Shown: in pieces, positions 34,678-56,287 of the stretch | Layout of the letters: each line of letters opens with the position of its first letter | Numbering within the stretch: the first letter of the stretch is position 1 | DNA from: Candidatus Poribacteria bacterium | Lineage (GTDB): Bacteria > Poribacteria > WGA-4E > PCPOR2b | Assembly (NCBI GenBank): GCA_965208325.1 | Contig: OZ242326.1 | Location: 3,392,001-3,456,000 of the forward strand | DNA length: 64,000 nt | Direction: 5' to 3' | Made by a program: the position numbers and the translations under genes | Notes under the pieces: generated by a model | What the model was told of the DNA's origin: nothing | Seen by the model: the letters and a program-made list of their open reading frames with translations, nothing else | The model's database searches: none

Positions 34678-34707
34678 ACGCTGGTGAAGAGCGGATGAAG
34701 TGCTAAA

Positions 34708-40294: not shown

Positions 40295-42138
40295 ACGAAC
40301 ACACACAGGAATCACATGATCATCACCATGAAGAGAGTTTTGTCCGCAAATATATCTTTTCGCTCGATCATAAAACAATAGGCAAGCAGTTCCTCATCTT
40401 CGGCCTGATTATGTTCATTGTCGGGGGCGGGCTGGCGCTGCTTTTCCGTTGGCAACTCGCCTGGCCCGACAGGCCGCTGCCGATAATCGGGGCTTCCCAA
40501 ACCTATTTGGAGGAGGGCGAAGTTGAAACTGCTGCAGACCGGAAGTGGGAAGAACGTTACGATGACGATAAAGACTCTTGGTTAGAGACGAACATGCCCA
40601 GCGGGATTATAGACCCGAACTTTTATAATTCGCTGTTTACAATGCACGCCACCATTATGGTTTTCTTCGTGGTTGTACCGCTGCTTGTTGGTGCGTTTGG
40701 CAATTTCCTCATCCCGCTGATGATTGGGACCAGAGATATGGCGTTCCCGGTGCTGAATATGCTTTCTTTCTGGTCCAACATGCTCGGGACGATTATAATG
40801 ATTGCGGGGTTCTTTGTGCCCGGCGGGCACGCTGCGGCGGGCTGGACCGGCTACGCGCCGCTGTCTTCAGTCCCAGAGCTTAGCGGTGTAGATTGGGGAC
40901 AGAATCTCTGGTGCATCAGCCTTATTGTCATGGGTATCTCCTCGCTGATGGGGTCTATCAACTATATCACCACAATCATCAACATGCGTGCGCCGGGGAT
41001 GACATGGTTCCGTCTCCCGCTGGCGATTTGGGCGCTGTTTATCGTGGCGATTCTTCTGCTGCTCGCATTTCCTGTCGTGGCTTCTGCGCTCGGGCTAATC
41101 CTCTTCGACCGGTTGGCGGGAACGTCCTTCTTTTCCGCCGAAGGCGGCGGCGATGCCTTATTATGGCAGCACCTTTTCTGGTTCTTCGCGCATCCGGAGG
41201 TTTATATCCTCATTTTGCCCGGCATGGGTATGGCATCTGAAATGTTGCCTGTCTTTTCCAGAAAGCCCATCTTTGGCTATAAGTCAATGGTCTATGCCAT
41301 GATAGCAATTGCCTTTCTCAGCTGGATTGTATGGGGACACCACATGTTCCAGAGTGGGATGAACCCCGCATTGGGGATGGCGTTCATGACCACCACCATG
41401 CTAATTGCTGTACCTTCGGCAATTAAGACGTTTAACTGGCTCGGTACGCTATACCGGGCATCAATTCGATTCACCGTGCCGATGTTAAACACGCTTGCCT
41501 TTGTCTCAATGTTCGTCATTGGCGGTCTGAGCGGCATATACATGGCAAATTCGCCGGTTGACATCTACATCCACGATACATACTATATCGTGGCGCATAT
41601 TCATTATGTCGTCTTCGGCGGCAGCGTCTTCGCCATTTTTGGAGGTGTCTTCTACTGGTTCCCCAAAATGTTTGGGCGGCACATGAATGAGATTCTTGGA
41701 AAAATTCATTTTTGGATTTCGTTCATCGCCTTTAACGGCGTCTTTTTCCCGATGCACATCATCGGTGTTGGGGGGCACATGCGGCGAATCTCCAACCCGA
41801 CACAGTATGAATTTTTGCAACATATGCAATGGATAAATGTATTGATTACGATGTTTGCATTTGTTTTGGGCGCGGCTCAAATTCTGTTGCTCATCAATGT
41901 ATTTTGGAGCATGTTCCGCGGGAAGGTGGCTGAGCAGAATCCGTGGCAGGCAACCACCTTGGAATGGCAAGCACCGACGCCTGTCCCCCATGGCAATTTC
42001 GGAGCCATTCCGCACGTATATCACGGCCCCTATGAGTATAGCGTCCCTGGAGCTGAATCGGACTGGATCCCGCAGACGCAGCCGAACGGCGAATCGCTGC
42101 CCGACGAACCGGTACCGGCCGGAGCCGCCGCGGATTAA
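40291..42138 (+). CDS. coxA: cytochrome c oxidase subunit I, A-family
   Basis: DHKTIG, AHPEVY, WGHH, HIH; K-channel Lys in SAIK. Confidence 0.95.
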   Translation: MNEHTQESHDHHHEESFVRKYIFSLDHKTIGKQFLIFGLIMFIVGGGLALLFRWQLAWPDRPLPIIGASQTYLEEGEVETAADRKWEERYDDDKDSWLETNMPSGIIDPNFYNSLFTMHATIMVFFVVVPLLVGAFGNFLIPLMIGTRDMAFPVLNMLSFWSNMLGTIIMIAGFFVPGGHAAAGWTGYAPLSSVPELSGVDWGQNLWCISLIVMGISSLMGSINYITTIINMRAPGMTWFRLPLAIWALFIVAILLLLAFPVVASALGLILFDRLAGTSFFSAEGGGDALLWQHLFWFFAHPEVYILILPGMGMASEMLPVFSRKPIFGYKSMVYAMIAIAFLSWIVWGHHMFQSGMNPALGMAFMTTTMLIAVPSAIKTFNWLGTLYRASIRFTVPMLNTLAFVSMFVIGGLSGIYMANSPVDIYIHDTYYIVAHIHYVVFGGSVFAIFGGVFYWFPKMFGRHMNEILGKIHFWISFIAFNGVFFPMHIIGVGGHMRRISNPTQYEFLQHMQWINVLITMFAFVLGAAQILLLINVFWSMFRGKVAEQNPWQATTLEWQAPTPVPHGNFGAIPHVYHGPYEYSVPGAESDWIPQTQPNGESLPDEPVPAGAAAD

Positions 42139-42192
42139 AGGTCTGCCGAACGCTCTAAACACCACCGAAACGGTTGGAAGGAAACCGATTCA

Positions 42193-43335
42193 ATGTATCG
42201 TCGATGGCTCTATGGACTCGCTGTCCTCACTGCTGTGATGACGTTTATCCTGATTTGCATGGGCGGACTTGTGACGAGTACGGACTCAGGGCTGGCTGTC
42301 CCCGATTGGCCGACGACCTTCGGATACAACATGTTTCTCTATCCGCTATCGAAAACGGTCAGCGGTTTTCTCTTCAGCATTGACTCAAACCTCCAAGCTA
42401 GTTTGGATGACAGTAATCCTTCGGTAGAGTTGCGGACGGCGCTTGAAAATGATGAGAATTCGGTGTCGGAGGATGTTAGAATTACTGTTATTGCGCCAGG
42501 CAGCAGATGGCGGCTAACAGATGACGAGAACGGGCGCACCTATTCGGTGATTAAAACGGGGGATCGGCTCGATGTTTACGTTCACGGCGTTCTGTACGAA
42601 CACAGCCATCGCTTGATTGGGTCGGTCGTCGGACTGCTGACGATTGGGTTGATGGTCTCAATATTGGCGAAGGACAATCGGAATTGGATGAAATGGCTTG
42701 GCGTTGTTGCACTCGCCGCGGTGGTTTTGCAGGGAGTGATGGGCGGGATGCGTGTCACAAACCTTAGTAGAATACTCGCTATCATTCACGCCTGTTTTGC
42801 CCAAGCATTTTTCGCACTGGCGGCAAGCCTCGCGTTATTTACGTCACGCGGATGGTTGGGGGCATCGGAGCAAATTGAAGCCGCAAATACTTCTCGCTTG
42901 AGAAATTTGACCATCATCACGGTATGTCTCATCTATGTCCAATTCATCTTCGGCGCCGTGTTGAGGCATACCGGGAATCGGCTGGACGCCCATCTGCTTT
43001 TCGCAGGTTTAGTATCAATTCACATATTTTTGCTCTTGAGGCGTATCTTGCTAGATTATCTGGAGAACCGGCTTCTTGTTCGCCTTATTCTGCTATTGAG
43101 CGGTCTGCTCGCCGTACAATTGGTGTTGGGATTTGGGGCATTCGTCACCGAGTTCACCGCTCTTGGAAAAGGCGTGTCCCCTGTGGCAGGCGTAGCAATC
43201 ACCACCGCCCATGTTGCGATAGGTGCGTTAATGATGGTCAGTTCTGTCCTACTGGCTTTGAATGTGTTTCGTTTCACAATGGGATCAGAACCTGTTGCGA
43301 ATCGAGGGCTTGTTTCCGACGAGGTATCCGCATGA
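42193..43335 (+). CDS. ctaA: heme A synthase (COX15/CtaA) with inserted soluble domain
   Basis: SGLAVPDWP, EHSHRL, IHACFAQ, conserved His residues in the C-terminal half. Confidence 0.88.
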   Translation: MYRRWLYGLAVLTAVMTFILICMGGLVTSTDSGLAVPDWPTTFGYNMFLYPLSKTVSGFLFSIDSNLQASLDDSNPSVELRTALENDENSVSEDVRITVIAPGSRWRLTDDENGRTYSVIKTGDRLDVYVHGVLYEHSHRLIGSVVGLLTIGLMVSILAKDNRNWMKWLGVVALAAVVLQGVMGGMRVTNLSRILAIIHACFAQAFFALAASLALFTSRGWLGASEQIEAANTSRLRNLTIITVCLIYVQFIFGAVLRHTGNRLDAHLLFAGLVSIHIFLLLRRILLDYLENRLLVRLILLLSGLLAVQLVLGFGAFVTEFTALGKGVSPVAGVAITTAHVAIGALMMVSSVLLALNVFRFTMGSEPVANRGLVSDEVSA

Positions 43336-44234
43336 TGCCAACAACACACACGCTAGACATCGGCTTATCCCAGATGAGCCGCCGCTTATCCATCTTTGTT
43401 GAGTTGACTAAACCGCGGCTGGTTTCGATGATACTAGTTACAACTTCAGCCGGCTTCTACCTCGCCTCTCCCCAGGTGCTAAATTGGCTGCAGTTCATTC
43501 ACGCCATTATCGGCACGGGTCTATCGGCAGCGGGAGTGTTAGCCCTTAATCAGTACCTTGAACGCGACTTAGATGCCCAGATGGTGCGGACATGCCACCG
43601 GCCGTTGCCGGATCGTCGGCTTCAACCGACGACAGCGCTGTCCTTCGGGGTTTTGTTGACGGCTGGCGGCTTGCTCTACATGGCGTTTGCCGTAAACGCC
43701 TTGAGCGCACTAGTCACGTCAGCCATTGTTGTGACTTATCTGTTCGTCTATACTCCGCTAAAGCAGAAAACATCGCTCTGTACTGTGGTGGGCGCGGTAC
43801 CCGGGGCATTACCGCCTGTAATCGGTTGGGTTGCGGCGCGGGGTACGCTCAATATTGAGGCGTGTGTGCTTTTCGCAATTCTGTTCCTCTGGCAACTGCC
43901 GCATTCGCTGTCGATTGCGTATATCTACCGAGACGAATACGCAAAGGCAGGTTTCCGCTTGCTTCCGGTAATTCACCCGGACGGCAAGAGCACCGGAAGG
44001 CAGATTGTCAGCAACTGTCTAGGCCTTCTCTTTGCGGCGCTGCTGCCCACGTTAATCGGCATAGCGGGTATAGTCTATTTTTTCGTTGCGTTGGCGTTGA
44101 GCATCGGGTTTCTTGGGTTCGGCATCAGCCTCTCAATTTCTCGATCGACTGCGGCAGCAAAACGGCTGCTGTACGCTTCATTGATATACTTGCCGCTTGT
44201 ATTTCTAGTGATGGCACTTGACAAGATGGCGTAA
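43332..44234 (+). CDS. ctaB: protoheme IX farnesyltransferase (heme O synthase)
   Basis: LTKPRL, ERDLDAQM.RT..RPLP, YTPLK, WQLPH; ATGA overlap with ctaA. Confidence 0.93.
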   Translation: MMPTTHTLDIGLSQMSRRLSIFVELTKPRLVSMILVTTSAGFYLASPQVLNWLQFIHAIIGTGLSAAGVLALNQYLERDLDAQMVRTCHRPLPDRRLQPTTALSFGVLLTAGGLLYMAFAVNALSALVTSAIVVTYLFVYTPLKQKTSLCTVVGAVPGALPPVIGWVAARGTLNIEACVLFAILFLWQLPHSLSIAYIYRDEYAKAGFRLLPVIHPDGKSTGRQIVSNCLGLLFAALLPTLIGIAGIVYFFVALALSIGFLGFGISLSISRSTAAAKRLLYASLIYLPLVFLVMALDKMA

Positions 44235-44257
44235 CGGACTGGGAGAATAAAACTCGA

Positions 44258-44368
44258 GTGAACAACGGCGAAAAGCGGCGGCGCAACCGACGTGTCGGCT
44301 GGTTCTTATTCGGAATATTTATCGTCTTGTTTTTTCTGGCAACGCTGCTCGCACTCTTTAAAAACTGA
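44258..44368 (+). CDS. 36-aa single-TM small protein (absent from ORF track)
   Basis: GTG...TGA encoding MNNGEKRRRNRRVGWFLFGIFIVLFFLATLLALFKN; GGGAG upstream; lies inside the cox operon. Confidence 0.6.
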   Translation: MNNGEKRRRNRRVGWFLFGIFIVLFFLATLLALFKN

Positions 44369-44458
44369 TGAATAACGTCTTGTAGGCGAGGTTTCCTAGT
44401 CTCGATTGTTCGGTAATGGGGCTTTTCTTCTTTAACTGCGTTTCAAATAAAATCTTCG

Positions 44459-45064
44459 ATGAATGAATTAGAACACACGTCATACACAAGCACCGAAGGC
44501 GAAAACAGGCCGATAAGCAATGCGCGTTTAGCCGTATTGGTACTATTGGGCGCAGAAATCATGTTTTTCGCAGGGCTGATAGGGACATTCCTTGTGTTCC
44601 GCCTGGGCAGTACAACATGGCCCCCTGCTTCTCAGGTAGACGTTCGTTTGCCCGTGGGTGTGACAGGACTGAACACAATCGTACTGCTCTTGAGCGGTTT
44701 TACGATGTTTAAAGCGCAGCAAGCCATTCGGCAAGGCCTTCAGAATGCGCTTAGAAACAGGCTTTTCCTGACGGGGCTGCTCGGCGTCATCTTCCTCGCT
44801 GTGCAGGGTTACGAATGGGTGCGCTTGGTGCATCACGGATTCACGCTTTCATCGGGAGTATACGGCTCAATATTTTATGTGCTTATCGGTTGCCATGCCC
44901 TGCACGTACTGGTGGCAGTATTTTGGCTGTTAGCCGTTTTCATTGGGGCGACGGCCGGACGGTTTTCCGTTGATCGCCACGTGGGTGTTGAGGTCTGCGC
45001 TATTTACTGGGCGTTTGTTGTGTTGTTGTGGCCCATTCTTTATGTCCTTGTATATTTGATCTAA
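44459..45064 (+). CDS. coxC: cytochrome c oxidase subunit III (paralog 1)
   Basis: AEIMFFAGL, NTIVLLLSG, QGYEW, GCHALHV, YWAFV. Confidence 0.88.
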   Translation: MNELEHTSYTSTEGENRPISNARLAVLVLLGAEIMFFAGLIGTFLVFRLGSTTWPPASQVDVRLPVGVTGLNTIVLLLSGFTMFKAQQAIRQGLQNALRNRLFLTGLLGVIFLAVQGYEWVRLVHHGFTLSSGVYGSIFYVLIGCHALHVLVAVFWLLAVFIGATAGRFSVDRHVGVEVCAIYWAFVVLLWPILYVLVYLI

Positions 45065-45123
45065 ATGGAGGACGTTCAAAACAGCCGCGAGATGTCCATG
45101 CCTCGACTTTCGGAGGTTGAGAA

Positions 45124-45345
45124 ATGACCGCAATTTCCAAAAAAAGGTACCAATCAAGAAAGAAAAAATGCCTCGACTCGAAAAACGAAGAAACTGTTAT
45201 GCAATGTCAGTCACAAGAACCGATATGGAAAATTGTTGCTGGCATTGGGTCACAGATTCCCTTGGCATCGTGGGAGAATGTGCCCGATGATGCCTCAATA
45301 AACTTCAAGCATTATCTTTACGGGGAACCCAAAAGGACCGTATGA
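45124..45345 (+). CDS. antitoxin-like remnant upstream of a vapC pseudogene
   Basis: WENVPDDASINFKHYLYGEPK C-terminus; ATGA overlap with the PIN gene. Confidence 0.55.
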   Translation: MTAISKKRYQSRKKKCLDSKNEETVMQCQSQEPIWKIVAGIGSQIPLASWENVPDDASINFKHYLYGEPKRTV

Positions 45346-45525
45346 ATGCCGTTTTTGCCGATGCAGGATATTGGATAGCGTTGTTCAATCCGGGCGATCG
45401 GCTGCATGGGGCTCATCGACTGTGCTTCATTTCTCATTATGCAGCAACGGCGCATCATAGACGCACTAGCTTTTGATGAACATTTCAGGCAAGCGGGTTT
45501 CAATCCTTTATTGCGCGCGAATTAA
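45342..45525 (+). pseudogene. vapC: VapC/PIN toxin pseudogene with internal deletion and frameshift
   Basis: MNAVFADAGYWIALFNPGDRLH joined out of frame to LIDCASFLIM...AFDEHFRQAGF. Confidence 0.75.
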
Positions 45526-45641
45526 ATAAAGGAAATGTTCATGAATTCCTGTGCATCTAGACGTTTTCCCGTTGAATATTGGGTTGCACTGGAATGCGCG
45601 ATTTGCTCCTGTCGTTATTTTGCAAATGAGGGGATTTATTA

Positions 45642-45896
45642 ATGATGTGGCGATATTTTTCACTAATAGTTGGGATGATGGTCCTTTCAACGTTGATACC
45701 AACGGTTGTGGACGCGTGCCCTTCATGTAAAACGATTGATGACCCAATTGTTCAAGGATTTAAGTGGAGTATTTTATTCCTTATGGCGATGCCTTATATT
45801 GTTTCCGGTCTGATTGGTGGCAGTGTATTCTATATTTACAAACACTCACATCGGACCAATAATCATAAACCATCTTCAAATGTGAAAGGAGTGTGA
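45642..45896 (+). CDS. small CxxC membrane protein of the cox operon
   Basis: Signal-like N-terminus, ACPSC, then TM SILFLMAMPY. Confidence 0.7.
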   Translation: MMWRYFSLIVGMMVLSTLIPTVVDACPSCKTIDDPIVQGFKWSILFLMAMPYIVSGLIGGSVFYIYKHSHRTNNHKPSSNVKGV

Positions 45897-45899
45897 AAA

Positions 45900-46544
45900 T
45901 TGGAAGACACTGCAACACTCGATCATTCCGCAGATGTCTATGAACCATCCCTCACGCCTGACAGTCTGGGAAAGTTGGGGATGTGGCTCTTTCTTATTAG
46001 CGATGCGATGTCGTTTGGCGCGCTGTTGGCTGCCTACGGCGCTATCCGTGCTGGCGCAGCCGAGTGGGCGCCGCCATCCGAAGTACTCGGCATTGAACTC
46101 ACGGCGTTTATGACCTTTCTGTTAATCTGTAGTAGTGTCACGATGGTCAAAGCCCTCGAAGCCATCCAGAACGGCAATCAGAGGAGGATGTGTACCTTCC
46201 TCGGTTTGACTATCCTAGGCGGCGTAATCTTCTTGGGATTGCAAGCCTACGAATGGACACACCTAATTACACACGGGCTCACCCTAACCACAATTCCTCA
46301 TCACGGGTTGTCTGGGGCTGAGATTTCAGGTTCTGTGCTTTTTGGTCCCACTTTCTACACAATTACAGGTTTCCACGGTGCCCACGTCACTGGCGGAGTC
46401 ATTTACCTCATCGTTATCTTGATACAAGGACTGCGGGGAAATTACACAGCCGAGTATAACCACAAGGTCGAGATTTTGGGGTTGTATTGGCACTTCGTAG
46501 ACCTTATCTGGATTATGGTCTTTACGTTTGTCTATCTATTGTAA
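45900..46544 (+). CDS. coxC: cytochrome c oxidase subunit III (paralog 2)
   Basis: KLGMWLFL.SD, SSVTM, GFHGAHV, GLYWHFVD. Confidence 0.9.
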   Translation: MEDTATLDHSADVYEPSLTPDSLGKLGMWLFLISDAMSFGALLAAYGAIRAGAAEWAPPSEVLGIELTAFMTFLLICSSVTMVKALEAIQNGNQRRMCTFLGLTILGGVIFLGLQAYEWTHLITHGLTLTTIPHHGLSGAEISGSVLFGPTFYTITGFHGAHVTGGVIYLIVILIQGLRGNYTAEYNHKVEILGLYWHFVDLIWIMVFTFVYLL

Positions 46545-46563
46545 ACTCTAATGGAGAATCGAG

Positions 46564-46908
46564 ATGGAACACGCTCATAAAGAACATCCGAGATACATGA
46601 GAATATTTTGGATACTTTTGGTGCTCACAATCCTTGAAGTCCTAGTTGCTTTGCCTTTTTTAAAGCAGATGTTGGGGACAGCTATAACCGCAATCTTGCT
46701 AATCGGTATGGCATGTTCTAAAGCAGCTTACGTTGCGCTCTATTTCATGCACTTGAAATTTGAGAAGAAAACCTTGACAGCCATCGCATTAACACCGTTT
46801 ATCATCTGTGTTTTTCTCGTGTTTATGCTGCTTCCGGATTTGATGGAAGACGCTCGTCACGCAGGAATGGAAACATCCGCATCTCAAACTGTTGAATCCT
46901 CTCATTGA
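46564..46908 (+). CDS. cytochrome c oxidase subunit IV
   Basis: LTILEV, KAAYVALYFMHLKFE. Confidence 0.85.
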   Translation: MEHAHKEHPRYMRIFWILLVLTILEVLVALPFLKQMLGTAITAILLIGMACSKAAYVALYFMHLKFEKKTLTAIALTPFIICVFLVFMLLPDLMEDARHAGMETSASQTVESSH

Positions 46909-46949
46909 TGCGCAATGATTGGTATTCTACCTAAAATCTAATTACGTTT

Positions 46950-47597
46950 ATGGAAACAGAAACACCGGCACAGAATCCTAAACCGAGGGAACGCCTGCGG
47001 CATGGACTGTTGTGGGGGGTGTTGATTGTCGTCATCGTCGGTATTGTTGGCGCCAATATTTGGTCGCCGCATCATCAAGATTCAGGCGACGACACCGAAC
47101 CGGATCTTTCCGTCCATCATCAGGTGCCTGATTTCTCTTTGATTGATCAGCGCGGTGCTTTAGTTACTCCGTCGGATCTACGCGGCAAGATTTGGGTTGT
47201 GGATTTTATCTTCACCCGCTGCGTTGCGGCATGTCCACTAATGACGGACAAGATGAAGAAACTTCAGGAAGAATTCGCGGAGTCAGGTGTTTACTTCGTC
47301 TCGGTTTCTGTCGATCCGGAATATGACACGCCGGACGTTCTCTTTCAGTACGCTAATCGCTTCGGCGTGGATGGAAGCACATGGTTGTTTCTAACAGGAG
47401 AAAAGGAAACTATCTATCACCTCACACAAGAAGGCTTCGGCTTAGCTGTCGGGCAGCAAGAATCCGAAGTTCTTCATAGCGCTCGGTTTGTCTTGGTTGA
47501 TCGCCGCGGGCAAATACGCGGATTCTACGACAGCAACGAAGATGAGGCGCTTCAAAAACTTCGCCGAGATATACCGCAATTACTCATCGAATCGTGA
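46950..47597 (+). CDS. SCO1/SenC copper chaperone
   Basis: FTRCVAACP (CxxxCP), SVDPEYD, LHS. Confidence 0.92.
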   Translation: METETPAQNPKPRERLRHGLLWGVLIVVIVGIVGANIWSPHHQDSGDDTEPDLSVHHQVPDFSLIDQRGALVTPSDLRGKIWVVDFIFTRCVAACPLMTDKMKKLQEEFAESGVYFVSVSVDPEYDTPDVLFQYANRFGVDGSTWLFLTGEKETIYHLTQEGFGLAVGQQESEVLHSARFVLVDRRGQIRGFYDSNEDEALQKLRRDIPQLLIES

Positions 47598-48038: not shown

Positions 48039-48088
48039 ATCCGTTCGCTTGATTGATAGTTTTAACTGACAGTCAAGGAAAAGCAACG

Positions 48089-50017
48089 ATGTTCAAAAAA
48101 ATCCACGTGCCTGTTGACAATTCGGATTATTCTGACGCGAGCGTCAATCTTGCTGTCGCGTTTGCCAAGAAATTCGCTTCGCAACTAGTTGGCTCTCATG
48201 TCTACGCGGCGAAGATGCACGACGTTCGTTTCAAACAGATGGAATACACCCTGCCGGAGGAGTATCAGGACGAAGTCGAACTCGAAAAACAGCGCCGTAT
48301 CCATGACACCTTGATTACGATGGGGCTCCAACTTATTTCGGATTCGTATCTTGATGTCATGCAGAAAATATGTGTGAAAGAGAATATCCCTTTTGAAGCA
48401 AAAATGCCGGAGGGCAAGCATTTCATCAAGATGGTGGAGGATATTCAATCTAGCGGTTACGATCTGGTAATTATGGGCGCTCTTGGTATGGGAGCCGTCA
48501 AAGACAGCCTGCTCGGCGGTGTGTGCGAACGGGTTGTCCGCCGAATCCAAACCGATGTACTCGTGGTCAGAAACATTCGGCCCATCGAAGAGCAGCACGG
48601 CCACATTCTCGTAGGCATTGACGGCAGCCCTGAATCATTCGCCGGCTTGAAAACGGCGATTCAGATCGGTAAAGCATTTAATCGGCACGTCGAGGCGGTT
48701 GGTGTCTACGATCCATATCTCCATTATGTGGTATTTAATTCAGTCGTCAATGTGCTGACGGAACGCGCATCTAAAACCTTTCGATTCAAAGAGCAGGAAC
48801 AGTTGCACGAGGAGGTAATCGACACTGGGCTCGCAAAGATTTATCAGTCCCATTTAGAGGTGGCGCGTACAATCGCGAAAGAAGACCACAACTACGACCT
48901 CAAAATAACCTTGCTCGACGGCAAAGCCTTTGAAAAAATCTTGCAATACACGCGTAAGACCCAGCCGTGGCTGCTGGTGCTTGGTCGAATTGGCGTGCAC
49001 AGCGAATCCGATATGGACATCGGAAGCAACACCGAAAATCTGCTGCGGCTCGCGCCTTGCAACCTTCTACTATCGAGCCAACGGTATGTCCCCAAGGTTG
49101 ATGTCAAGGCAGAAGAGACTGTCGTTTGGACGCAGGAAGCCTTAGACCGTATGGAGAAAGCGCCGCCGCTAATCAAAGGAATTGCCAGGACGGCAGTCCA
49201 CCGCTTTGCGCTTGAGCGCGGGCACTCGGTCATTACCGAAAGCGTCATTGAGGGCGCTATGGAGACCTTTATGCCGGGGCGCTCTGCCGAACGGATGACG
49301 AGAGTCGCCAAAGAGGTCGCGGCACAGACGGTTCTTGAGGCAAATGCCGTCCAGACATACATCTGTGAAGATTGCGGCTATGCCGCCCGTGAACAGCAAC
49401 CGGTGAAATGTCCGGTCTGCGGCGTCGGCAGCGACCGCTTCCAGATGGTTGATAAAGACTCGCTGCAGAAAATTGCGGCTCAAGAGGGCGGCGTCAGCGA
49501 AGAACGTACCTTTGACGGCGTCCGCCTCCAGTGGTCGGATCAGGCAAAGAAGGCGTTGCGGAATGTTCCGCGCGGTTATATGCGGCGTAATGTCAAGGCG
49601 CGAATCGAAAAATCGGCGCGGACGCAGAAAATCGACACTATCACGAATGAATTTGCCATGCAGATTGTCAACGAGAGCATCGATGACGCTTCCGCTATCC
49701 GAGAAGACGCGCCTGAACTAAGGGCTGTGTCTCAATCGCGCGGCAACGCCGACACCGCCCAAGGGGAGGCATTTGAAAGTCGGTTTGAATGGACAACAGA
49801 CGCCCGTGAGCGATTGAATCTCGTACCCGCAGGATTTATGAGGAACATCACGCAGTCTCGCGTCGAGCAGCGGGCACAGGAAGCCGACCTTGAAACAATC
49901 AACCTCGATTTTGCGGCACAGGTAATTGAAGACGGACGGAGTCTGGCTAACGAGGTGCTTGGCAGCTATTATCAACAGGATGAACAGGCTAGCGAGGTAG
50001 GCGCACAGGCAAAATGA
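48089..50017 (+). CDS. tandem-USP protein with rubredoxin-like domain and three PCP_red-like domains
   Basis: VPVDNS..DLVIMG..G and VGIDGS..IGS USP domains; CEDCG...CPVCG; three W(T/S)xxAxxxL..(V/A)P..(M/I)R repeats. Confidence 0.8.
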   Translation: MFKKIHVPVDNSDYSDASVNLAVAFAKKFASQLVGSHVYAAKMHDVRFKQMEYTLPEEYQDEVELEKQRRIHDTLITMGLQLISDSYLDVMQKICVKENIPFEAKMPEGKHFIKMVEDIQSSGYDLVIMGALGMGAVKDSLLGGVCERVVRRIQTDVLVVRNIRPIEEQHGHILVGIDGSPESFAGLKTAIQIGKAFNRHVEAVGVYDPYLHYVVFNSVVNVLTERASKTFRFKEQEQLHEEVIDTGLAKIYQSHLEVARTIAKEDHNYDLKITLLDGKAFEKILQYTRKTQPWLLVLGRIGVHSESDMDIGSNTENLLRLAPCNLLLSSQRYVPKVDVKAEETVVWTQEALDRMEKAPPLIKGIARTAVHRFALERGHSVITESVIEGAMETFMPGRSAERMTRVAKEVAAQTVLEANAVQTYICEDCGYAAREQQPVKCPVCGVGSDRFQMVDKDSLQKIAAQEGGVSEERTFDGVRLQWSDQAKKALRNVPRGYMRRNVKARIEKSARTQKIDTITNEFAMQIVNESIDDASAIREDAPELRAVSQSRGNADTAQGEAFESRFEWTTDARERLNLVPAGFMRNITQSRVEQRAQEADLETINLDFAAQVIEDGRSLANEVLGSYYQQDEQASEVGAQAK

Positions 50018-50181
50018 CTTAATTGGCTCAGAACGATCAAATGAGCGGAAAGTGAAGGGATGGTTTACTGCGAATCCCAACGCATTTGAAAACTTCGTCA
50101 ATCCAAATACAAAAAACTGTCGCGATTACTATCTTGTCTCTAATTTGGCGGATTGTTTAGGAATTTGGGAGGCTTTATCCC

Positions 50182-51465
50182 ATGGGCTACGCGCGGAAAA
50201 AACAGTGGACAATTGTAATACTTTCCGTAATTTTGCTTTCGGCTGTGGGCGTTGCCGCAGCGGAAAACTGGCCGCATTGGCGCGGACCGCGCAACGATGG
50301 CACCAGTCTCGAAACCGGCCTTCCAATCCAATGGAGTAGCACTGAAAACGTCCTGTGGCGGCTTCCGCTACCGGGCGCCGCCGGTGCAACACCGGTCGTG
50401 TGGGATGACCGCATCTTCCTGACTTCGGCAGAGGGCAGCGATCTGGTACTGTTGTGCATCGGAACAGATGGCGAGTTACTCTGGAAACGCACCTTGGGAA
50501 CCGGCAATCGCAACGTCCACGGCGGAGAGGGAAACGCCGCCTCCCCTTCCCCATCCACCGACGGCAAACATGTCTGGGCATTCATCAGCACTGGAGACTT
50601 AGCCTGCTATGACTTCGACGGCAACGAGGTCTGGAAGACTAATCTGGAAGACCGGTACGGCGGCTTCAATCTCTACTTCGTCATGGCATCCACTCCGCTC
50701 CTTGACGGTGACCGGCTTTATCTCCAGTTAATTCACAGCAATGCATGGCTCGTGCTGGCATTGGACAAATCGACCGGCCGTGAGATTTGGAAACACAATC
50801 GTATAAGCGACGCATACGCGGAGTGCGAACATTCTTACGCCTCCCCTTCGCTCTATCGAGACGATAAACGTGAATTCTTGCTCGTTCACGGTGCGGACTA
50901 CATCACCGCCCACCATCTCACGGACGGAAGCGAGATTTGGCGCTGCGGAAACCTTAATCCGAAGAATAGCTACAACACCTCCCTGCGGTTGGTTGCCTCC
51001 CCTGTAGCCGTTCCCGGACTCGTCGTCGTTCCTTCCGCGAAGAATGGGCCGGTCATCGGCCTGCGTCCCGGCGGCAAGGGGGATATAACCGGCTCAAAGC
51101 GATGGCAGCACTGGCGGCGAGCGGATGGCACGCCGGATGTTCCGTCTCCACTCATCCATGAAGGACTTGTTTATCTATGCCGGGAAAACGGCGATCTAAT
51201 TTGTATGGACGCCGAATCCGGCAAGCAAGTGTACAAAGAGCGGACGCACCGTCACAGGCACCGTGCATCCCCCGTTTCCGGTGGCGGCAACATCTACTTG
51301 ACTTCGAGGGACGGACGTGTAACCGTTGTAAAATCTGGGCGGAATTTTGAGATTCTTGCCTCCAACGACATTGAAGAGACGATCTCCGCGTCCCCCGTCA
51401 TCTCGAACGGCAAGTTCTATCTACGGAGCTACAAAGCGCTGTATGCCATCGGTGTTGCGGAGTGA
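50182..51465 (+). CDS. PQQ-binding-like beta-propeller exported protein
   Basis: Signal peptide, NWPHWRGP, repeated W/SP blades. Confidence 0.85.
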   Translation: MGYARKKQWTIVILSVILLSAVGVAAAENWPHWRGPRNDGTSLETGLPIQWSSTENVLWRLPLPGAAGATPVVWDDRIFLTSAEGSDLVLLCIGTDGELLWKRTLGTGNRNVHGGEGNAASPSPSTDGKHVWAFISTGDLACYDFDGNEVWKTNLEDRYGGFNLYFVMASTPLLDGDRLYLQLIHSNAWLVLALDKSTGREIWKHNRISDAYAECEHSYASPSLYRDDKREFLLVHGADYITAHHLTDGSEIWRCGNLNPKNSYNTSLRLVASPVAVPGLVVVPSAKNGPVIGLRPGGKGDITGSKRWQHWRRADGTPDVPSPLIHEGLVYLCRENGDLICMDAESGKQVYKERTHRHRHRASPVSGGGNIYLTSRDGRVTVVKSGRNFEILASNDIEETISASPVISNGKFYLRSYKALYAIGVAE

Positions 51466-51504
51466 ATTGCCAAGCACGGAGAATTGTGAAGTCGGGTGCC
51501 GCTC

Positions 51505-52422
51505 ATGAAAACCTACAAAGACCTACCCTCCGATGGCGGTTCTGATATCGTCGGGCAGGTGACTCAACAGGTCAACCGCCTGCAGAAACGGCTTGCATCG
51601 GTGCGTCATACCGTCGCTATCATGAGCGGAAAGGGCGGGGTAGGTAAGAGTTTGTTGACGGCAAATCTTGCTTCAGCGCTTAGATTGCGCGGATACGATG
51701 TTGGGATAGTTGACGCTGATATCAATGGCCCGTCAATCGCCAAAATGACGGGGGTGAGGTCGGTACAGATTATTTACGACGCTGCCGGTGTGAAACCTGC
51801 GGTGAGTCCATCGGGCGTCAAGGTGATGTCGATGGATCTGTTCCTCAAGAACGACGAATCCCCGGTGCTTTGGGAAGCCCAAACGCAGAAGGACGCTTTC
51901 ACTTGGCGCGGGACGATGGAGGTGACCGCACTCCGCGAATTCCTATCTGATACCGAATGGGGCGCACTTGACTATCTGCTAATCGATCTGCCGCCCGGTT
52001 CGGACCGGCTGCCGAATCTCGCCGATTTGCTGCCGACGCTCGGCGGCGCCATCGTGGTCACCATTCCTTCCGGCGTCTCACAGCTTGTCGTAAAGAAATC
52101 GTTGACGATGGCAAAGGCAGCACTCAACATACCGGTGATTGGTATCGTCGAAAACATGAGCGCATACATCTGCGCCAGTTGCGGCAAGACGGAAGGCTTG
52201 TTCCCGACTGGGAATACGGAGGAGACGGCGCATCAATTCAACATTCCGTTACTCCCCAAAATTCCGTTCGATCCACGTCTTTCAATCGCCGCTGACGACG
52301 GTGAGAACTTTTTAGAACACAACGCCGAAACACCAGCCGCAAAGGCGATAATCGAAGTTGGCAAAAAAATCGAGACGTTTTTTGAGAACAACACTGCAAG
52401 TGTGCCACGGAGCGACTCATGA
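51505..52422 (+). CDS. apbC: Mrp/NBP35 (ApbC) Fe-S cluster carrier ATPase
   Basis: SGKGGVGKS, DADINGPS, DLPPG, ENMS.Y.CASC. Confidence 0.9.
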   Translation: MKTYKDLPSDGGSDIVGQVTQQVNRLQKRLASVRHTVAIMSGKGGVGKSLLTANLASALRLRGYDVGIVDADINGPSIAKMTGVRSVQIIYDAAGVKPAVSPSGVKVMSMDLFLKNDESPVLWEAQTQKDAFTWRGTMEVTALREFLSDTEWGALDYLLIDLPPGSDRLPNLADLLPTLGGAIVVTIPSGVSQLVVKKSLTMAKAALNIPVIGIVENMSAYICASCGKTEGLFPTGNTEETAHQFNIPLLPKIPFDPRLSIAADDGENFLEHNAETPAAKAIIEVGKKIETFFENNTASVPRSDS

Positions 52423-52934
52423 AATTTCTATGCCTCGAATGTAACACGGCTATGCAATTTAAGGAAGCCGCAAAACCCGATCAAGGTTCATTAACGGCAA
52501 TCTTCGAGTGTCCGGACTGTTTTGCCGAGTTTGCAATGCACATGAACCCGTGGGAAACCCAAATGCTGAAGTCCCTCAACGTTCAGCTCGGCGGCAAAAG
52601 CGAAGCGGCGCAGCCGATGCAGATGGTACGCTCCTTTTTAAGCGAGCAAGGCGGCGCAACCGCCGCAACAGATCAGAACACGCAGACAACAACCATGACG
52701 CCTGAGTCGGAAGGCGGCAAGTGTCCGTTTACATCAGTTGTCGCAGAAGCATTTCAAGAACCGGATTCGTCCGGACCGGTATGGACGCCGGAAGCCTTAG
52801 CGCGTTTGGAGCGTGTGCCTAGCTTCGTCCGTCCGATGGCAAAGACTAGCATTGAAGAGTTCGCACGTGAAAATGGGCACACCGAAATCACCACCGACAT
52901 CATGGATTCTGCACGCGGCAGTTTTGGGATGTAG
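52419..52934 (+). CDS. Zn-ribbon plus PCP_red-like domain protein
   Basis: CLEC...CPDC, GKCPF, WTPEALARLERVPSFVRPMAK..IEEFA; ATGA-coupled to Mrp. Confidence 0.75.
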   Translation: MKFLCLECNTAMQFKEAAKPDQGSLTAIFECPDCFAEFAMHMNPWETQMLKSLNVQLGGKSEAAQPMQMVRSFLSEQGGATAATDQNTQTTTMTPESEGGKCPFTSVVAEAFQEPDSSGPVWTPEALARLERVPSFVRPMAKTSIEEFARENGHTEITTDIMDSARGSFGM

Positions 52935-53080
52935 GAGTATGTCGCAGCAATTACGGAAGAAATCTTCTTACACAAGTATTGGCAGACCAGTGTGAGGCGT
53001 TAATGTAGAACATTTCATTCTGCAGATTGTATTTACTTTTCTCGGCGGGACCGCTTCTATGTTTCACGGTACACTTATCC

Positions 53081-53578
53081 ATGCGCCAATTCGTCGAACT
53101 TGTCATTCGTTGGATACACCTAATCGCCGCAATCGTCTGGTTCGGCAGCGTCTTTTTTTCAGTCAGCATCGCTACACCGGTATTGAGGAAGCATTTCCAA
53201 ATCGTTGAAAGTGTCCGGCATACCGCCGAGATTCTGGAGCGCTTACGGCATATTATCCGTTTCACGATTCACGTGCTTCTAATCACTGGTGCGATGAACG
53301 TGTTCATCGTTGGATTGAACACGCAGATGCGCTTTTCTCAGGACTACGGCTATTTTGTTGTTTTTATCGCGAAACTCGCTTTTGTTGGATTGATGACGCT
53401 GTTCCATAGCCTGCATATCGCCGTTTTCAACCGAAGATTGGAATCAGCAGCGGCAAACCCAGATTTTGACGCTTCAGAGGTCTCCAAGCTCCAAAAGCGG
53501 GTGGACCTATTTGGAATTTTTACGATACTCACCGGGCTTGTTGTCTTTGCGTTATCGTTGCGTTTGAGAGTGGATTGA
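53081..53578 (+). CDS. CopD/DUF4149-like four-TM protein
   Basis: RWIHLIAAIVWFG, LLITG, KL...H. Confidence 0.65.
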   Translation: MRQFVELVIRWIHLIAAIVWFGSVFFSVSIATPVLRKHFQIVESVRHTAEILERLRHIIRFTIHVLLITGAMNVFIVGLNTQMRFSQDYGYFVVFIAKLAFVGLMTLFHSLHIAVFNRRLESAAANPDFDASEVSKLQKRVDLFGIFTILTGLVVFALSLRLRVD

Positions 53579-53615
53579 TAAACTAAGTGAAGCGTGTCAT
53601 TAGGGAAGTAAATAC

Positions 53616-54917
53616 ATGGAAACGAAAATCCAAGCCGTCTCATGGAATATCACACGGTTATGCAATCTCAAATGCACACACTGTTATCTCCCCGCCGGCT
53701 TTGTGGATACGAACGAGTTTCCAAACGGGTATTATCGAGACGCGGAATTGACGCAGCCCGAGTGTTTCCGCGTGATAGATGAGATTGCCGAAGTCAATCC
53801 CAACATCCTCCTGATACTCACAGGCGGCGAACCGTTGCTGCGGCCTGACATTTTGAAAATCTCGGATTATGCGGCTCAAACCGGATTCTTAGTGGTGATG
53901 GGTACGAACGGCGTCCTGCTGAACGATGAAACGGTTCGGCGGATGAGCGATCACGGTGTTGCCGGCGCAGGCATCAGTTTGGATGCTGTGGACGCGGTTA
54001 ATCACGACAAGTTCCGGGGGATGGAGGGCGCCTGGGAGAGTACGATGAACGGGGTCGAAGCCCTTAAACGGGCAAACCTCGATTTCCTTGTGCAGACCTC
54101 TGTGACACAGTGGAATTACGATGAGGTCCCGCAAATCGTCGATTTTGCCTATGAACTCGGCGCGAAGGTCTTTAACCTCTATTTCCTTGTGAGAACCGGC
54201 AGGGGGAAAACGGTGATGGATATCACACCGGCTCAATATGAACAGATGCTCTCGACACTCTTTGAGTTGCAGTCGAAATATCGCGGCAAGATGTTGGTTG
54301 CAGCGAAATGCGCGCCGCACTACAAACGGGTCATTTTTGAACAGCAATCAGATTCGCCCTTCCTGCAAGCCTATCCGAGCGGTACGTGTCCCTGCGGCAT
54401 CTATTACTGCCGCATTACGCCGGAAGGCGATTTGACGCCGTGCCCCTACATGCCGGTGAGCGTCGGCAATCTGAAGACGGATAGTTTCCAGACACTCTGG
54501 AACCAGTCGAAAGTCTTTCGCGAACTGCGAAATCGGGAACTGCTGGAAGGCAAGTGCGGCGCCTGCGAATTTCGCGACGTGTGCGGCGGTTGCCGCGCCC
54601 GCGCCTATGCCCAAACCGGTAACTATCTCGCTGAAGATGCGTCTTGCGAATACCAACCCGGACAGGTTGGCGGCCAAAACGTTCGGTTCGAAAAGACTAC
54701 CCCCTTTGCGGCCGAAACCGACTACGAGTTACAGTGGACGGATGCTGCGCAGAAAAGATTGCAGCGCGTGCCCTCCTTTGCTCGCGGGATGGTTACCAAA
54801 AGTATCGAGAATTACGCCCGCGAACACGGTTGCCATGAAATTACACCGGAAATCATGAAAACAGTCAAGGATCGGTTTGACAAAACGGGAATCCCGTCGT
54901 TTAGACCTCGGCGGTAA
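53616..54917 (+). CDS. radical SAM/SPASM protein (AhbD/NirJ-like) with C-terminal PCP_red-like domain
   Basis: WNIT..CNLKCTHC, GGEP, CAPHY, SPASM C..G...PCPY...GKC..C.....CGGCRARA; WTDAAQKRLQRVPSFARGM. Confidence 0.85.
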   Translation: METKIQAVSWNITRLCNLKCTHCYLPAGFVDTNEFPNGYYRDAELTQPECFRVIDEIAEVNPNILLILTGGEPLLRPDILKISDYAAQTGFLVVMGTNGVLLNDETVRRMSDHGVAGAGISLDAVDAVNHDKFRGMEGAWESTMNGVEALKRANLDFLVQTSVTQWNYDEVPQIVDFAYELGAKVFNLYFLVRTGRGKTVMDITPAQYEQMLSTLFELQSKYRGKMLVAAKCAPHYKRVIFEQQSDSPFLQAYPSGTCPCGIYYCRITPEGDLTPCPYMPVSVGNLKTDSFQTLWNQSKVFRELRNRELLEGKCGACEFRDVCGGCRARAYAQTGNYLAEDASCEYQPGQVGGQNVRFEKTTPFAAETDYELQWTDAAQKRLQRVPSFARGMVTKSIENYAREHGCHEITPEIMKTVKDRFDKTGIPSFRPRR

Positions 54918-54978
54918 AACACGGTTAACAAAGGTAAATTTCACGCATGACGCCCGCACACTTTGAGGAGAAAAAACT

Positions 54979-55392
54979 ATGAATAGTGAAAACCGAGTTG
55001 AAGACAGGCTATCAGCCGTTGAAGACCGGTTAAACCGCTTGGAAGTTTTATTGGTCGGCATCAGCCAGAAACTGGATCAGAAACCCCAGCCGACTGCGAT
55101 TGACGAGGAGAAAGGCGAAGCGTTCAAAGAGTGGGTGACCGATTACGTTTCAATGCGCTTGCAGCAGCTTGTGCCCGAAACATGCGATCATCCGGCAGAC
55201 ACGAATTCGCACGAAGGTCCGTTCTTGGATAACACCTCAGTCCGTTGCACAGAGGAAGTTGTTCATCGCGTCAAACGCATCCCGATTCCGTTTGTTCGGG
55301 AGATGGTGGTTCAACGTGTGGCGGAAAATGCCCGCCGTGCAGAGGTTGATGTGGTTGACGTGGAATTCTTTGAAAGTGCGGCGACCTTTTGA
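54979..55392 (+). CDS. coiled-coil plus PCP_red-like domain protein
   Basis: RLSAVEDRLNRLE; CTEEVVHRVKRIPIPFVREMV..RVAENAR; RBS GAGGAG. Confidence 0.7.
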   Translation: MNSENRVEDRLSAVEDRLNRLEVLLVGISQKLDQKPQPTAIDEEKGEAFKEWVTDYVSMRLQQLVPETCDHPADTNSHEGPFLDNTSVRCTEEVVHRVKRIPIPFVREMVVQRVAENARRAEVDVVDVEFFESAATF

Positions 55393-55868
55393 CAGTGCAA
55401 AGCCACGGAGGAGTTTCCTCTGCCGCATTTCCATTGGGAGGATTTTTTAACCACTCCGCTCTGAACCAAGACTCCAAAATCTTCAACCAAAATATGGATT
55501 GGGTGTTTAATCTTTTCTCCGAATATCTTGAGAACGACTTCAAGAAGCGGCTAGGCATTCCCAAGCCGACAGTGGACCAACTCTGGGACGCCTTCAAAAT
55601 CATGTTCCCGGCAACTTCGGCGAGACTCCTGGTGCAAGAGCCGGTTGGAAACACGGTCCGATTCAAACCGCTCGCCTTTTATTATGCGGACGAAATGGGG
55701 CCGTTGATTGAAGATGCGATGGGCTATATCAAGCAAAATTTCGGCGGCGGCAAATTCAAAATCAATTTCTACCAAGGAATGCAGTTCATCGCAACAATCA
55801 ACTTTAAGCCTGAAGGACCAGAAATCTGGCGCGATTTGCCGGAACTTGATGGGGCGGGGGTATCATGA
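55389..55868 (+). CDS. hypothetical protein
   Basis: ORF overlaps both neighbours; true start may be ATG 55494. Confidence 0.6.
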   Translation: MTVQSHGGVSSAAFPLGGFFNHSALNQDSKIFNQNMDWVFNLFSEYLENDFKKRLGIPKPTVDQLWDAFKIMFPATSARLLVQEPVGNTVRFKPLAFYYADEMGPLIEDAMGYIKQNFGGGKFKINFYQGMQFIATINFKPEGPEIWRDLPELDGAGVS

Positions 55869-56287
55869 CACTTCAGCAGACCGTAACGGTATGCCCCGCG
55901 TGCAACAGCAAAAACGTGGAGGCAGTTGACCAAAATTCGTCGTTCTGCCTCGATTGCGATTGGGACAATTTACCGTTCGTCTCGAAAAGAACTGACGCAC
56001 TGATTTCTGCGCTGCGTCACGGCGATCCAGAGGCGCGGCGGGAGGCGGCGCAGACGCTAATCAATATCGGAGATGCCAACCGGCACGTCGCAACGCCCGA
56101 CGACCTCAATCCCCTGCTCGAAGCCCTTGATGACACAGATGACGATGTCCGCTATTTTGCTGCCGTGGCGCTGGGAAAGCTTCGAGATACACGCGCACGG
56201 GCAAGGCTTGAGCACATTGTGCATAACGATCCCTCTGGACTCGTGCGCGAAGGCGCTAGAAGCGCAATCGAATGGATTGAAGATTGA
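55865..56287 (+). CDS. Zn-ribbon plus HEAT-repeat protein
   Basis: CPAC...CLDC; LLEALDD.D.DVR..AA.ALG. Confidence 0.75.
   Translation: MTLQQTVTVCPACNSKNVEAVDQNSSFCLDCDWDNLPFVSKRTDALISALRHGDPEARREAAQTLINIGDANRHVATPDDLNPLLEALDDTDDDVRYFAAVALGKLRDTRARARLEHIVHNDPSGLVREGARSAIEWIED

Follow-up and report, generated by a model that had tools for sequence, protein, structure and literature searches.

The window analysed here, 64,000 nucleotides of contig OZ242326.1 of a Candidatus Poribacteria bacterium (assembly GCA_965208325.1, positions 3,392,001 to 3,456,000), carries at 48053-56287 a gene cluster centred on an enzyme of the radical S-adenosylmethionine (SAM) type and marked by repeated copies of PCP_red, the C-terminal domain of subunit B (BchB/ChlB) of DPOR (dark-operative protochlorophyllide oxidoreductase). 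Across phyla, four of its products (a radical SAM-PCP_red enzyme, an Mrp-type carrier, a Zn-ribbon-PCP_red protein and a USP-USP-rubredoxin-PCP_red protein) travel together and with a block of genes for a cytochrome bd-like oxidase. The cluster is, with high confidence, a cytoplasmic accessory module of this OR-N-like oxidase. The gene set probably prepares or delivers the oxidase's cofactor; cofactor maturation is its most likely task, and the complete explanation built on it is the best available, held tentatively.

Gene content of the cluster

All genes of the cluster lie on the + strand and are separated by short gaps or joined by 4-base overlaps. They and their main elements are as follows.

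48053..50017, + strand: USP-USP-PCP_red-rubredoxin-like-PCP_red-PCP_red protein, 654 amino acids from TTG (Pfam)
49127-49255, 49532-49654 and 49790-49912, + strand: PCP_red copies of the USP protein (Pfam, coordinates of the genome scan)
about 49358-49441, + strand: rubredoxin-like CxxC...CxxC of the USP protein (RUBY_RBDX, 28.6 bits, cut-off 26.5)
50182..51465, + strand: PQQ_2/BamB-like beta-propeller, secreted-looking, 427 amino acids (Pfam PQQ_2, 86.3 bits)
51496..52422, + strand: Mrp/ApbC/NUBPL-type P-loop Fe-S carrier ATPase, 308 amino acids, with a CxxC motif (CASC) (PF10609, 247.7 bits, cut-off 27.1)
52419..52934, + strand: protein with Zn-ribbon, disordered linker and PCP_red (52782-52916), 171 amino acids (Pfam)
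52722-52730, + strand: 'KCPF' motif in the linker of the Zn-ribbon-PCP_red protein (alignment)
53027..53578, + strand: CopD-like membrane protein, 183 amino acids (PF05425, 32.9 bits, cut-off 32.1)
53616..54917, + strand: radical SAM/SPASM enzyme, AhbD/NirJ group by sequence, with fused PCP_red (54735-54869), 433 amino acids (TIGR04545, Pfam)
54979..55392, + strand: coiled-coil protein with divergent PCP_red (55252-55380), 137 amino acids (Pfam below cut-off, hhalign, fold)
55389..55868, + strand: protein of no known family, conserved core of 124 amino acids from ATG 55494 (Pfam and NCBIfam blank)
55865..56287, + strand: Zn-ribbon and HEAT (phycobilisome (PBS) lyase-like) repeat protein, 140 amino acids (HEAT_2, 60.3 bits; HEAT_PBS, 26 bits)

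The USP protein probably starts at ATG 48089, the start given in the first-pass annotation, which lies 12 codons into the open reading frame (ORF) that begins with TTG; the alignments of its relatives begin approximately there. A first-pass annotation made from the sequence alone had named a CopD-like protein, a Zn-ribbon-HEAT protein and a rubredoxin site in this cluster, and had described the Mrp gene as coupled to the next gene by an ATGA overlap; the family scores above bear out the former, and the stop of Mrp at 52422 and the Zn-ribbon start at 52419 form the 4-base overlap. Two small conserved ORFs of 84 and 96 amino acids, without a Pfam family at E 0.1, also lie in the cluster.

Co-occurrence with a bd-like oxidase

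The window places a bd-like block first, then aa3 oxidase genes, then the USP-to-HEAT cluster, and finally genes for a DUF420 and a ChdC-like protein.

29631..37583, + strand: bd-like module, flanked by two CarboxypepD_reg proteins (Pfam)
30486-32336, + strand: bd-like CydA (Pfam)
32361-33881 and 33898-34677, + strand: cytochrome c proteins of the bd-like block (Pfam)
34934-36664, + strand: dihaem c and EB_dh haem b protein of the bd-like block (Pfam)
39581..47597, + strand: aa3-type oxidase (COX2, COX1, two COX3, COX4), CtaA, CtaB and SCO1 (Pfam)
56350-56769, + strand: DUF420 protein (Pfam)
57019-57774, + strand: Chlor_dismutase/ChdC-like protein, the sole member of such a family in the genome

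The block at 30486-36664 recurs elsewhere as a CydA-like protein of 610-670 amino acids, two cytochromes c of about 265-275 amino acids and a dihaem c-EB_dh protein of 510-580 amino acids. It resembles the OR-N/OR-C complexes of the preprint by Murali, Gennis and Hemp, in which a CydA-like protein without a canonical CydB neighbour stands beside cytochrome c and periplasmic haem b proteins. The likeness of the window CydA is at family level only, and the main text of that preprint makes no mention of a radical SAM enzyme.

The first-pass annotation had suggested a survey of the cluster against bd-like CydA or aa3 modules; for bd-like CydA, presence and absence proved concordant in both samples compared. 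In a set of 28 genomes, the 17 with PCP_red or the radical SAM-PCP_red enzyme (5 Poribacteria and 12 diverse holders of the enzyme) all encode a strong homologue of the bd-like CydA, at 45-89% identity, and the 11 Poribacteria-phylum genomes without PCP_red have none. Of 91 Acidobacteriota genomes, three encode both bd-like CydA and PCP_red, in each case on a single contig; the other 88 have neither.

Physical linkage was followed in a scan of one genome per species, which gave 572 relatives of the enzyme and from which the best 80 loci were kept, high-G+C loci being scored by blastp against the window proteins only. By blastp, 17 of these 80 fetched loci contain a bd-like CydA no more than 10 kb from the radical SAM gene, none of them from Poribacteria or Nitrospinota; among their labels are Anammoxibacter, Scalindua, Gemmatimonadota, Vicinamibacterales, Multivorans, Bdellovibrionales, Latescibacterota, Rhodothermales and a deltaproteobacterial metagenome-assembled genome (MAG). 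In Poribacteria the bd-like block lies 17-23 kb away, outside the flank (21 kb in the window).

The earlier proposal that the cluster serves the neighbouring oxidases is partly supported and should be narrowed to the bd-like enzyme. Genes for aa3, CtaB or DUF420 are found beside the system in 11 of the 80 loci. CtaA occurs in genomes without the system (4/5 Poribacteria-phylum and 4/5 Acidobacteriota genomes), and the Nitrospinaceae, Brocadia and Anammoxibacter holders have neither CtaA nor CtaB; the system is therefore not tied to haem A. An oxygen-independent replacement of haem A synthase was also considered for the radical SAM enzyme and rejected, as nine of the 12 diverse holders encode CtaA and the three that lack it lack CtaB as well.

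A radical SAM enzyme of the AhbD/NirJ group

By sequence, the radical SAM enzyme is a member of the AhbD/NirJ group of tetrapyrrole-modifying enzymes, which fits the tetrapyrrole-modifying activity suggested for it in the first-pass annotation. The top seven NCBIfam models include AhbD, NirJ2, TIGR04053 and NirJ as the best four, together with NirJ1, a pseudo-SAM relative and AhbC. Six of the seven represent haem or haem d1 enzymes, the third-ranked TIGR04053 being an uncharacterised radical SAM/SPASM family. Like AhbD, NirJ2, NirJ and AhbC, the enzyme combines a CX3CX2C motif with a full SPASM region, and it is aligned with the AhbD model end to end (positions 2-339 of 339). The cysteines invariant in 34 sequences are C16, C20 and C23, which form the CX3CX2C motif, and C232, C258, C276, C314, C317, C323, C326 and C344; the latter eight would be enough for two auxiliary [4Fe-4S] clusters, the number reported for AhbD from M. 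barkeri (PMC10452713).

Several features set it apart from AhbD itself. Its score is 330.5 bits with the AhbD model TIGR04545, against a cut-off of 500 (NirJ2, 307.3 bits, cut-off 500), and its C-terminal PCP_red lies outside that model. None of the 12 other holders reaches the AhbD cut-off of 500 with its PCP_red-type enzyme, the scores being 283-335 bits. In Brocadia and Anammoxibacter, the PCP_red paralogue (335 and 329 bits) coexists with a separate protein that is close to canonical AhbD (498 and 489 bits). In a tree, 39 PCP_red-type enzymes form one clade with a Shimodaira-Hasegawa-like approximate likelihood ratio (SH-aLRT) support of 97, apart from the anammox AhbDs and three other anammox paralogues; the tree was built rapidly by maximum likelihood from residues 1-365, the careful search being unfinished. 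We infer from these features a distinct paralogue of AhbD and NirJ carrying one SAM cluster and two auxiliary clusters. Two record labels are at odds with placements in this analysis: within the same tree, the enzyme of a MAG labelled 'Nitrospiraceae' (L076) falls inside the Poribacteria clade, and another MAG, labelled 'Nitrospirota' (L098), comes from the same phylum sample as a Nitrospinaceae genome.

These data bear on the proposal that the enzyme has the AhbD function, an oxygen-independent coprohaem decarboxylase that ends haem b synthesis, with partners that keep its Fe-S clusters working in an aerobe. AhbD is its best NCBIfam model, and in the window genome alone the haem gene context would fit this role: genes for ferrochelatase and a CgoX/HemY-type oxidase lie 2 kb apart, HemF is absent, and the HemN candidate reaches 144 bits against a cut-off of 325. 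The two candidate coprohaem decarboxylases of this genome both lie in the cluster region, namely the radical SAM enzyme and, 2 kb downstream, the divergent ChdC-like protein (57019-57774), which scores about 44 bits against HemQ model cut-offs of 235-253 and may be an aerobic coprohaem decarboxylase or a haem-binding relative. AhbD has also been described in coproporphyrin-pathway organisms without other enzymes of the alternative haem biosynthesis (AHB) pathway (PMC13564367). The low scores, the separate anammox AhbDs and the clade of their own all speak against it. Moreover, HemF or HemN is found above cut-off in six of the 12 holders, five of them without any ChdC-family protein; HemF and HemN mark the protoporphyrin route, in which no coprohaem is made. 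The enzyme thus occurs with the protoporphyrin pathway, and its distribution tracks the bd-like oxidase, not the kind of haem pathway. We consider the AhbD function quite unlikely; simply to equate the radical SAM-PCP_red enzyme with AhbD, the haem b synthase, would be wrong.

A Gms-like lipid enzyme was considered and rejected as well: the alignment with the AhbD model starts at residue 8, so the N-terminal extension of about 100 residues (COG4001) is absent, and the neighbours are respiratory genes rather than tes/mss. After its PCP_red, the enzyme ends in a conserved '(I/M)PSF' tail (54870-54917), which echoes the domain's own 'VPSFxR' and is also found at the extreme C-terminus of the 629-residue anammox forms.

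PCP_red modules

The first-pass annotation had reported the same module of about 45 residues six times in four adjacent genes and compared it with the BchB C-terminus. Five of the six copies exceed the Pfam cut-off for PCP_red (PF08369, gathering cut-off 32.5 bits): the USP protein, with three stretches, scores 96.7 bits (E 8e-28), the Zn-ribbon protein, with one, 68.6 bits (E 4.7e-19), and the radical SAM/SPASM protein, likewise with one, 56.3 bits (E 3.2e-15). The sixth, in the coiled-coil protein, remains below it (E 4e-4, 20.8-22.5 bits). Its family profile nevertheless matched the PCP_red of the Zn-ribbon protein (hhalign probability 92.7%, E 4.2e-7, 52 columns). For the AlphaFold model of the coiled-coil protein, with a mean predicted local distance difference test (pLDDT) of 75.8, the best two folds in the PDB were the stand-alone domains 2L09 (root-mean-square deviation (rmsd) 1.8 Å, 49 columns) and 2KRU (rmsd 1.2 Å, 47 columns), each with a Foldseek probability of 1.00, yet with E values of only 0.02-0.06. 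Given the profile match, these folds and the genome scan, the divergent sixth copy is real. The fold matches ranked next for its small three-helix module come from the AAA+ ATPases FtsH, RuvB and RuvBL, namely from their lid subdomains, at E of at least 0.45.

Like the C-terminus of BchB/ChlB, 2L09 (Asr4154 of Nostoc, solved by nuclear magnetic resonance) and 2KRU, the modules are thus helical units of about 45 residues, by sequence for most copies and by predicted fold for the divergent one; sequence matches of the Zn-ribbon protein include BchB 2XDQ (E 1.9e-6) and 2L09 (E 1.9e-5). Unlike BchB, in which about 450 residues of nitrogenase-like body come before the C-terminal domain, the proteins that carry them have no such body: here, in a respiratory context, PCP_red is joined to USP, Zn-ribbon, coiled-coil and radical SAM proteins. 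Scanned in six frames, the complete 4.7-Mb genome yields 6 PCP_red matches, all within the cluster, and therefore no BchB; the DPOR subunit B model (TIGR01278, cut-off 490 bits) was matched only over its positions 442-535, at 42-54 bits.

The number of copies changes between lineages. On the enzyme there are three in Brocadia-type proteins, two in Anammoxibacter and one in the window, and USP homologues have up to four. Such shifts, the presence of PCP_red on every soluble partner and the confinement of every genomic copy to one cluster are what would be expected if the domain were, as the first-pass annotation proposed, a pure protein-protein docking tag that joins the USP-rubredoxin, Mrp-linked and radical SAM proteins like an interchangeable tether, without binding a tetrapyrrole. 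Variable copy number fits a domain that carries a ligand equally well, in DPOR the domain forms part of the substrate pocket, and we judge the pure docking function unlikely. A role of PCP_red as a hand-over domain is instead put forward, as a tentative proposal. In a complex prediction, the radical SAM enzyme and the Zn-ribbon-PCP_red protein, each entered as an alignment, obtained a score of 0.00 and a mark of 0.32, values that speak neither for nor against docking.

Partner proteins

The Mrp protein resembles the Mrp/ApbC/NBP35 carriers such as MrpORP in its NUBPL-type P-loop domain, its CxxC motif and the position of its gene next to a client with several [4Fe-4S] clusters. It differs from MrpORP and ApbC in being a minimal form of 308 residues, below both equivalog cut-offs (MrpORP, 253.7 vs 450 bits; ApbC, 175.7 vs 348 bits), and in its coupling to the Zn-ribbon-PCP_red protein. 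Its gene lies directly upstream of the latter in 35 of the 40 loci with both; with start sites as called in this analysis, the two genes share the 4-base overlap in 14 of these loci, of which nine are not from Poribacteria. No description of this pairing was found in the literature.

In an alignment of 25 Zn-ribbon proteins, C5, C31, C34, P103, W122, R129 and P134 are invariant and C8, C102 and F104 are kept in at least 90%. The four cysteines of the Zn-ribbon are thereby conserved, as is the 'KCPF' motif, which is present in 24 of the 25 proteins within a linker of variable length. A related 'CPF[ST]' motif appears in disordered stretches of two proteins, as 'KCPFT' in the Zn-ribbon protein and as 'CPFS' in the tails of some USP homologues (L082, L103). 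In its sequence, it resembles the Cys-Pro haem-binding motif, through which Fe(III)-haem is transiently coordinated by cysteine (PMC10377097).

The USP-USP-PCP_red architecture, with two to four PCP_red copies, is kept in all seven diverse homologues inspected, and the four rubredoxin-like cysteines are conserved in at least 90% of 18 aligned ones. Both USP halves (48089-49090) contain long, near-invariant, His-rich insertions across phyla, unusual for USP domains, with 'RFK[QE]xE' and the invariant H37, H44, H72, H212 and H240 (alignment A6). The second half also has a G-x2-G-x9-G-S stretch, which we take to be the ATP-binding USP signature. In Anammoxibacter (L056:8855-12103), a 442-residue USP-USP-PCP_red protein without the rubredoxin-like site is encoded directly upstream of the radical SAM enzyme with two PCP_red copies, inside a bd-like/cytochrome c cluster of an anaerobe.

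The presumed ATP site and the nearly invariant rubredoxin-like cysteines would suit a regulatory or electron-transferring module, that is, an ATP- and redox-sensing or electron-feeding unit in which Mrp acts as an ATP-driven Fe-S protein in the manner of NifH or BchL; Mrp does belong to the P-loop fold class of BchL, BchX and NifH, with weak matches to them. Its match to the Fe-S carrier family is, however, ten-fold better than to NifH-like models. The best-conserved member is the radical SAM enzyme with its two putative auxiliary clusters, 77-100% identical across the order, which argues for chemistry rather than signalling and makes a regulatory unit very improbable.

Among the other partners, the coiled-coil PCP_red protein has an invariant CxHP motif and C90, and the Zn-ribbon-HEAT protein has a weak match to CpcF (28.7 bits, cut-off 220). 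The CopD-like protein was tried as a HemJ-type porphyrinogen oxidase and rejected, as it matched no such Pfam family even at E 10. The protein at 55389..55868 matches no Pfam or NCBIfam family; it is 74-97% identical in Poribacteria-labelled loci and 41-46% identical in Latescibacterota and Rhodothermales loci. Its 124-residue core was modelled by AlphaFold with a pLDDT of 93.6. Against PDB folds, Foldseek gave at best E 9e-3 with TM scores of 0.38-0.44, and VIA-align wide a best Z of 5.0, with none of at least 8; in the ESM Atlas it fell among unnamed clusters, mostly from Nitrospirota, with scores of 0.80-0.85.

Conservation and phyletic spread

The radical SAM-PCP_red protein is found at 77-100% identity in 35 of 41 related genomes and as a fragment in one more; the five genomes of family f4 lack it. 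The order USP-(propeller)-Mrp-Zn-ribbon-CopD-like-radical SAM-coiled-coil-unknown-Zn-ribbon-HEAT is kept in 11 related loci, in two of them only partly. In the sampled genomes, PCP_red occurs in all members of three families of the phylum (f1, 18/18; f2, 82/82; f3, 9/9) and in 0/11 genomes of families f4-f8. The synteny that the first-pass annotation had asked about is therefore kept across an order, and the gene set recurs in many phyla.

The labels of the 80 loci include Nitrospinota, Brocadiales and other Planctomycetota, Gemmatimonadota, Acidobacteriota, Latescibacterota, Rhodothermales, Rokubacteria, Anaerolineales, Myxococcota and Bdellovibrionales. The USP protein, Mrp, the Zn-ribbon protein and the AhbD/NirJ-like enzyme, three of which carry PCP_red, are found as a set under no fewer than eight phylum-level labels; by blastp, the Zn-ribbon-PCP_red protein was detected in 35 of the 80 loci, the USP protein in 34 and Mrp in 32.

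The remaining genes have narrower distributions. The PQQ_2 propeller, present in 6 of the 11 related loci and in 9 of the 80, all Poribacteria-labelled, is a lineage-specific insert outside the core. A CopD-like gene stands beside the radical SAM gene in 25 of the 80 loci, from Poribacteria and Latescibacterota, and the coiled-coil PCP_red protein (23) and the Zn-ribbon-HEAT protein (19) are found only in Poribacteria-type loci. DUF420 and ChdC-like genes are the downstream neighbours in 5 of the 11 related loci. In Nitrospinota, 69 of 71 genomes contain PCP_red, with 1-9 matches each.

Surroundings and expression

Upstream of the bd-like block, the region 23320-29294 encodes a Rieske protein, a split cytochrome b and a multihaem cytochrome c of 1084 residues, and an ABC-2 type transporter (37656-39479) lies between this block and the aa3 genes. 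A stretch at 13406-19311 has a low G+C content (0.41-0.47, with about 0.50-0.53 around it) and minus-strand ORFs without Pfam matches; it is possibly foreign DNA. Scans of 47400-57900 for promoters and terminators gave counts no higher than in shuffled sequence (7 vs 8.0 and 11 vs 11.9). No RNA run was listed as containing 48053-56287; the runs that do contain this stretch are five, of DNA or of unknown type, and come from two studies.

Proposed function

We propose that the radical SAM enzyme modifies a haem-type tetrapyrrole destined for the bd-like complex. PCP_red, which helps to enclose the pigment in DPOR subunit B, would be a portable tetrapyrrole-binding module, common to the enzyme and its partners, that hands the molecule over. 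Mrp would supply Fe-S clusters to this tetrapyrrole relay around the enzyme, and the Zn-ribbon protein, coupled to Mrp and bearing a Cys-Pro-Phe motif of the Cys-Pro type, would join the Fe-S supply to tetrapyrrole handling. The rubredoxin-like site of the USP protein could accept an electron from an oxidative radical reaction or gate this reaction.

The tetrapyrrole theme arises from the haem and haem d1 models matched by the enzyme, the tetrapyrrole-enzyme setting of PCP_red, the KCPF/CPFS motifs and the PBS-lyase-type HEAT protein, and a tetrapyrrole is more likely than not the substrate of the enzyme. A comparable arrangement is that of NifB: precursors of FeMo-co are passed from protein to protein by its C-terminal NifX domain and by NifX itself as a free protein (PMC13474568). 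Like the NifB-NifX/NafY system, the cluster would pair a radical SAM enzyme with a small C-terminal cofactor-binding domain that recurs on separate proteins of the pathway; this is an analogy without sequence relationship, and the cargo here would be a tetrapyrrole.

An alternative reading of the enzyme is that of a SPASM protein or peptide maturase, which would modify a bd-like subunit or a small neighbouring peptide, with PCP_red recognising the substrate or partner. SPASM enzymes are often peptide maturases, and models for mycofactocin and sactipeptide maturases and for PqqE also match the enzyme, though more weakly (129.5 bits for the mycofactocin maturase, 122.2 bits for PqqE). Among solved structures, PqqE (6C8V, E 3.4e-21) is its nearest relative in sequence, and the small conserved ORFs of 84 and 96 residues lie in the cluster. 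The haem and haem d1 models of NCBIfam nevertheless score two to three times above any peptide maturase model, no precursor-like peptide is conserved with the enzyme outside Poribacteria, and a tetrapyrrole enzyme is the only known setting of PCP_red. A maturase is accordingly an improbable reading.

Beside these maturase matches, other points count against a tetrapyrrole-based cofactor pathway. The putative tetrapyrrole substrate is suggested by family resemblance. Gms, a lipid-bridging homologue that is 36% identical to AhbD, acts on a non-tetrapyrrole substrate (PMC11214058). A bd superfamily enzyme, CydAA', reduces oxygen with haem b only (preprint 10.1101/2021.01.16.426971), so that by precedent a special haem is not required. 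The genes are dispersed in Nitrospinota and Brocadia, and operon logic is therefore inapplicable there: in one Nitrospinaceae genome, the radical SAM gene, the bd-like block, the gene for the USP protein and the paired Mrp and Zn-ribbon-PCP_red genes each stand in a different place, and the enzyme has no conserved neighbour in Nitrospinota, Brocadia and Planctomycetota loci, save for the USP-PCP_red gene in Anammoxibacter. The hand-over role leans on the reported function of the BchB C-terminal domain as a pigment lid in DPOR crystal structures. Finally, co-occurrence was assessed in small samples with phylogenetic clustering. As to the 12 diverse genomes, possession of the enzyme was the reason for choosing them, the Acidobacteriota sample was centred on one genome (G136) with G218 and G261, the latter unpublished, as its only independent positives, and bd-like oxidases were first noted in Nitrospira proper, a group outside these samples.

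With these points considered, an accessory module for cofactor maturation of the bd-like oxidase remains our preferred explanation. A bolder version, in which the system makes or inserts a new modified haem, or performs another radical tetrapyrrole transformation, specific to OR-N-type complexes, and in which PCP_red is a general hand-over domain of which the DPOR C-terminus is the one known case, appears doubtful, though it is a serious possibility. The complexes in question are the little-understood 'terminal oxidases' found in Nitrospina-type nitrite oxidisers, in anammox bacteria and in many uncultured phyla. Literature searches on PCP_red, on bd-like oxidases with radical SAM enzymes, on AhbD and coprohaem, on anammox haem and on bd-like oxidases in Nitrospira returned nothing that describes the system.

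The bd-like oxidases have been proposed to be the principal enzymes of oxygen reduction in nitrite oxidisers that are dominant in the environment, and they are also present in anammox bacteria. A tightly co-occurring gene set around a radical SAM protein that resembles haem enzymes would offer a concrete handle on the cofactor of these oxidases. The orphan PCP_red domain gains a second biological setting, beyond chlorophyll synthesis. For the reconstruction of haem pathways, the finding is also a warning to annotation: 'AhbD/NirJ-like' genes that carry PCP_red should not be counted as haem b synthases.

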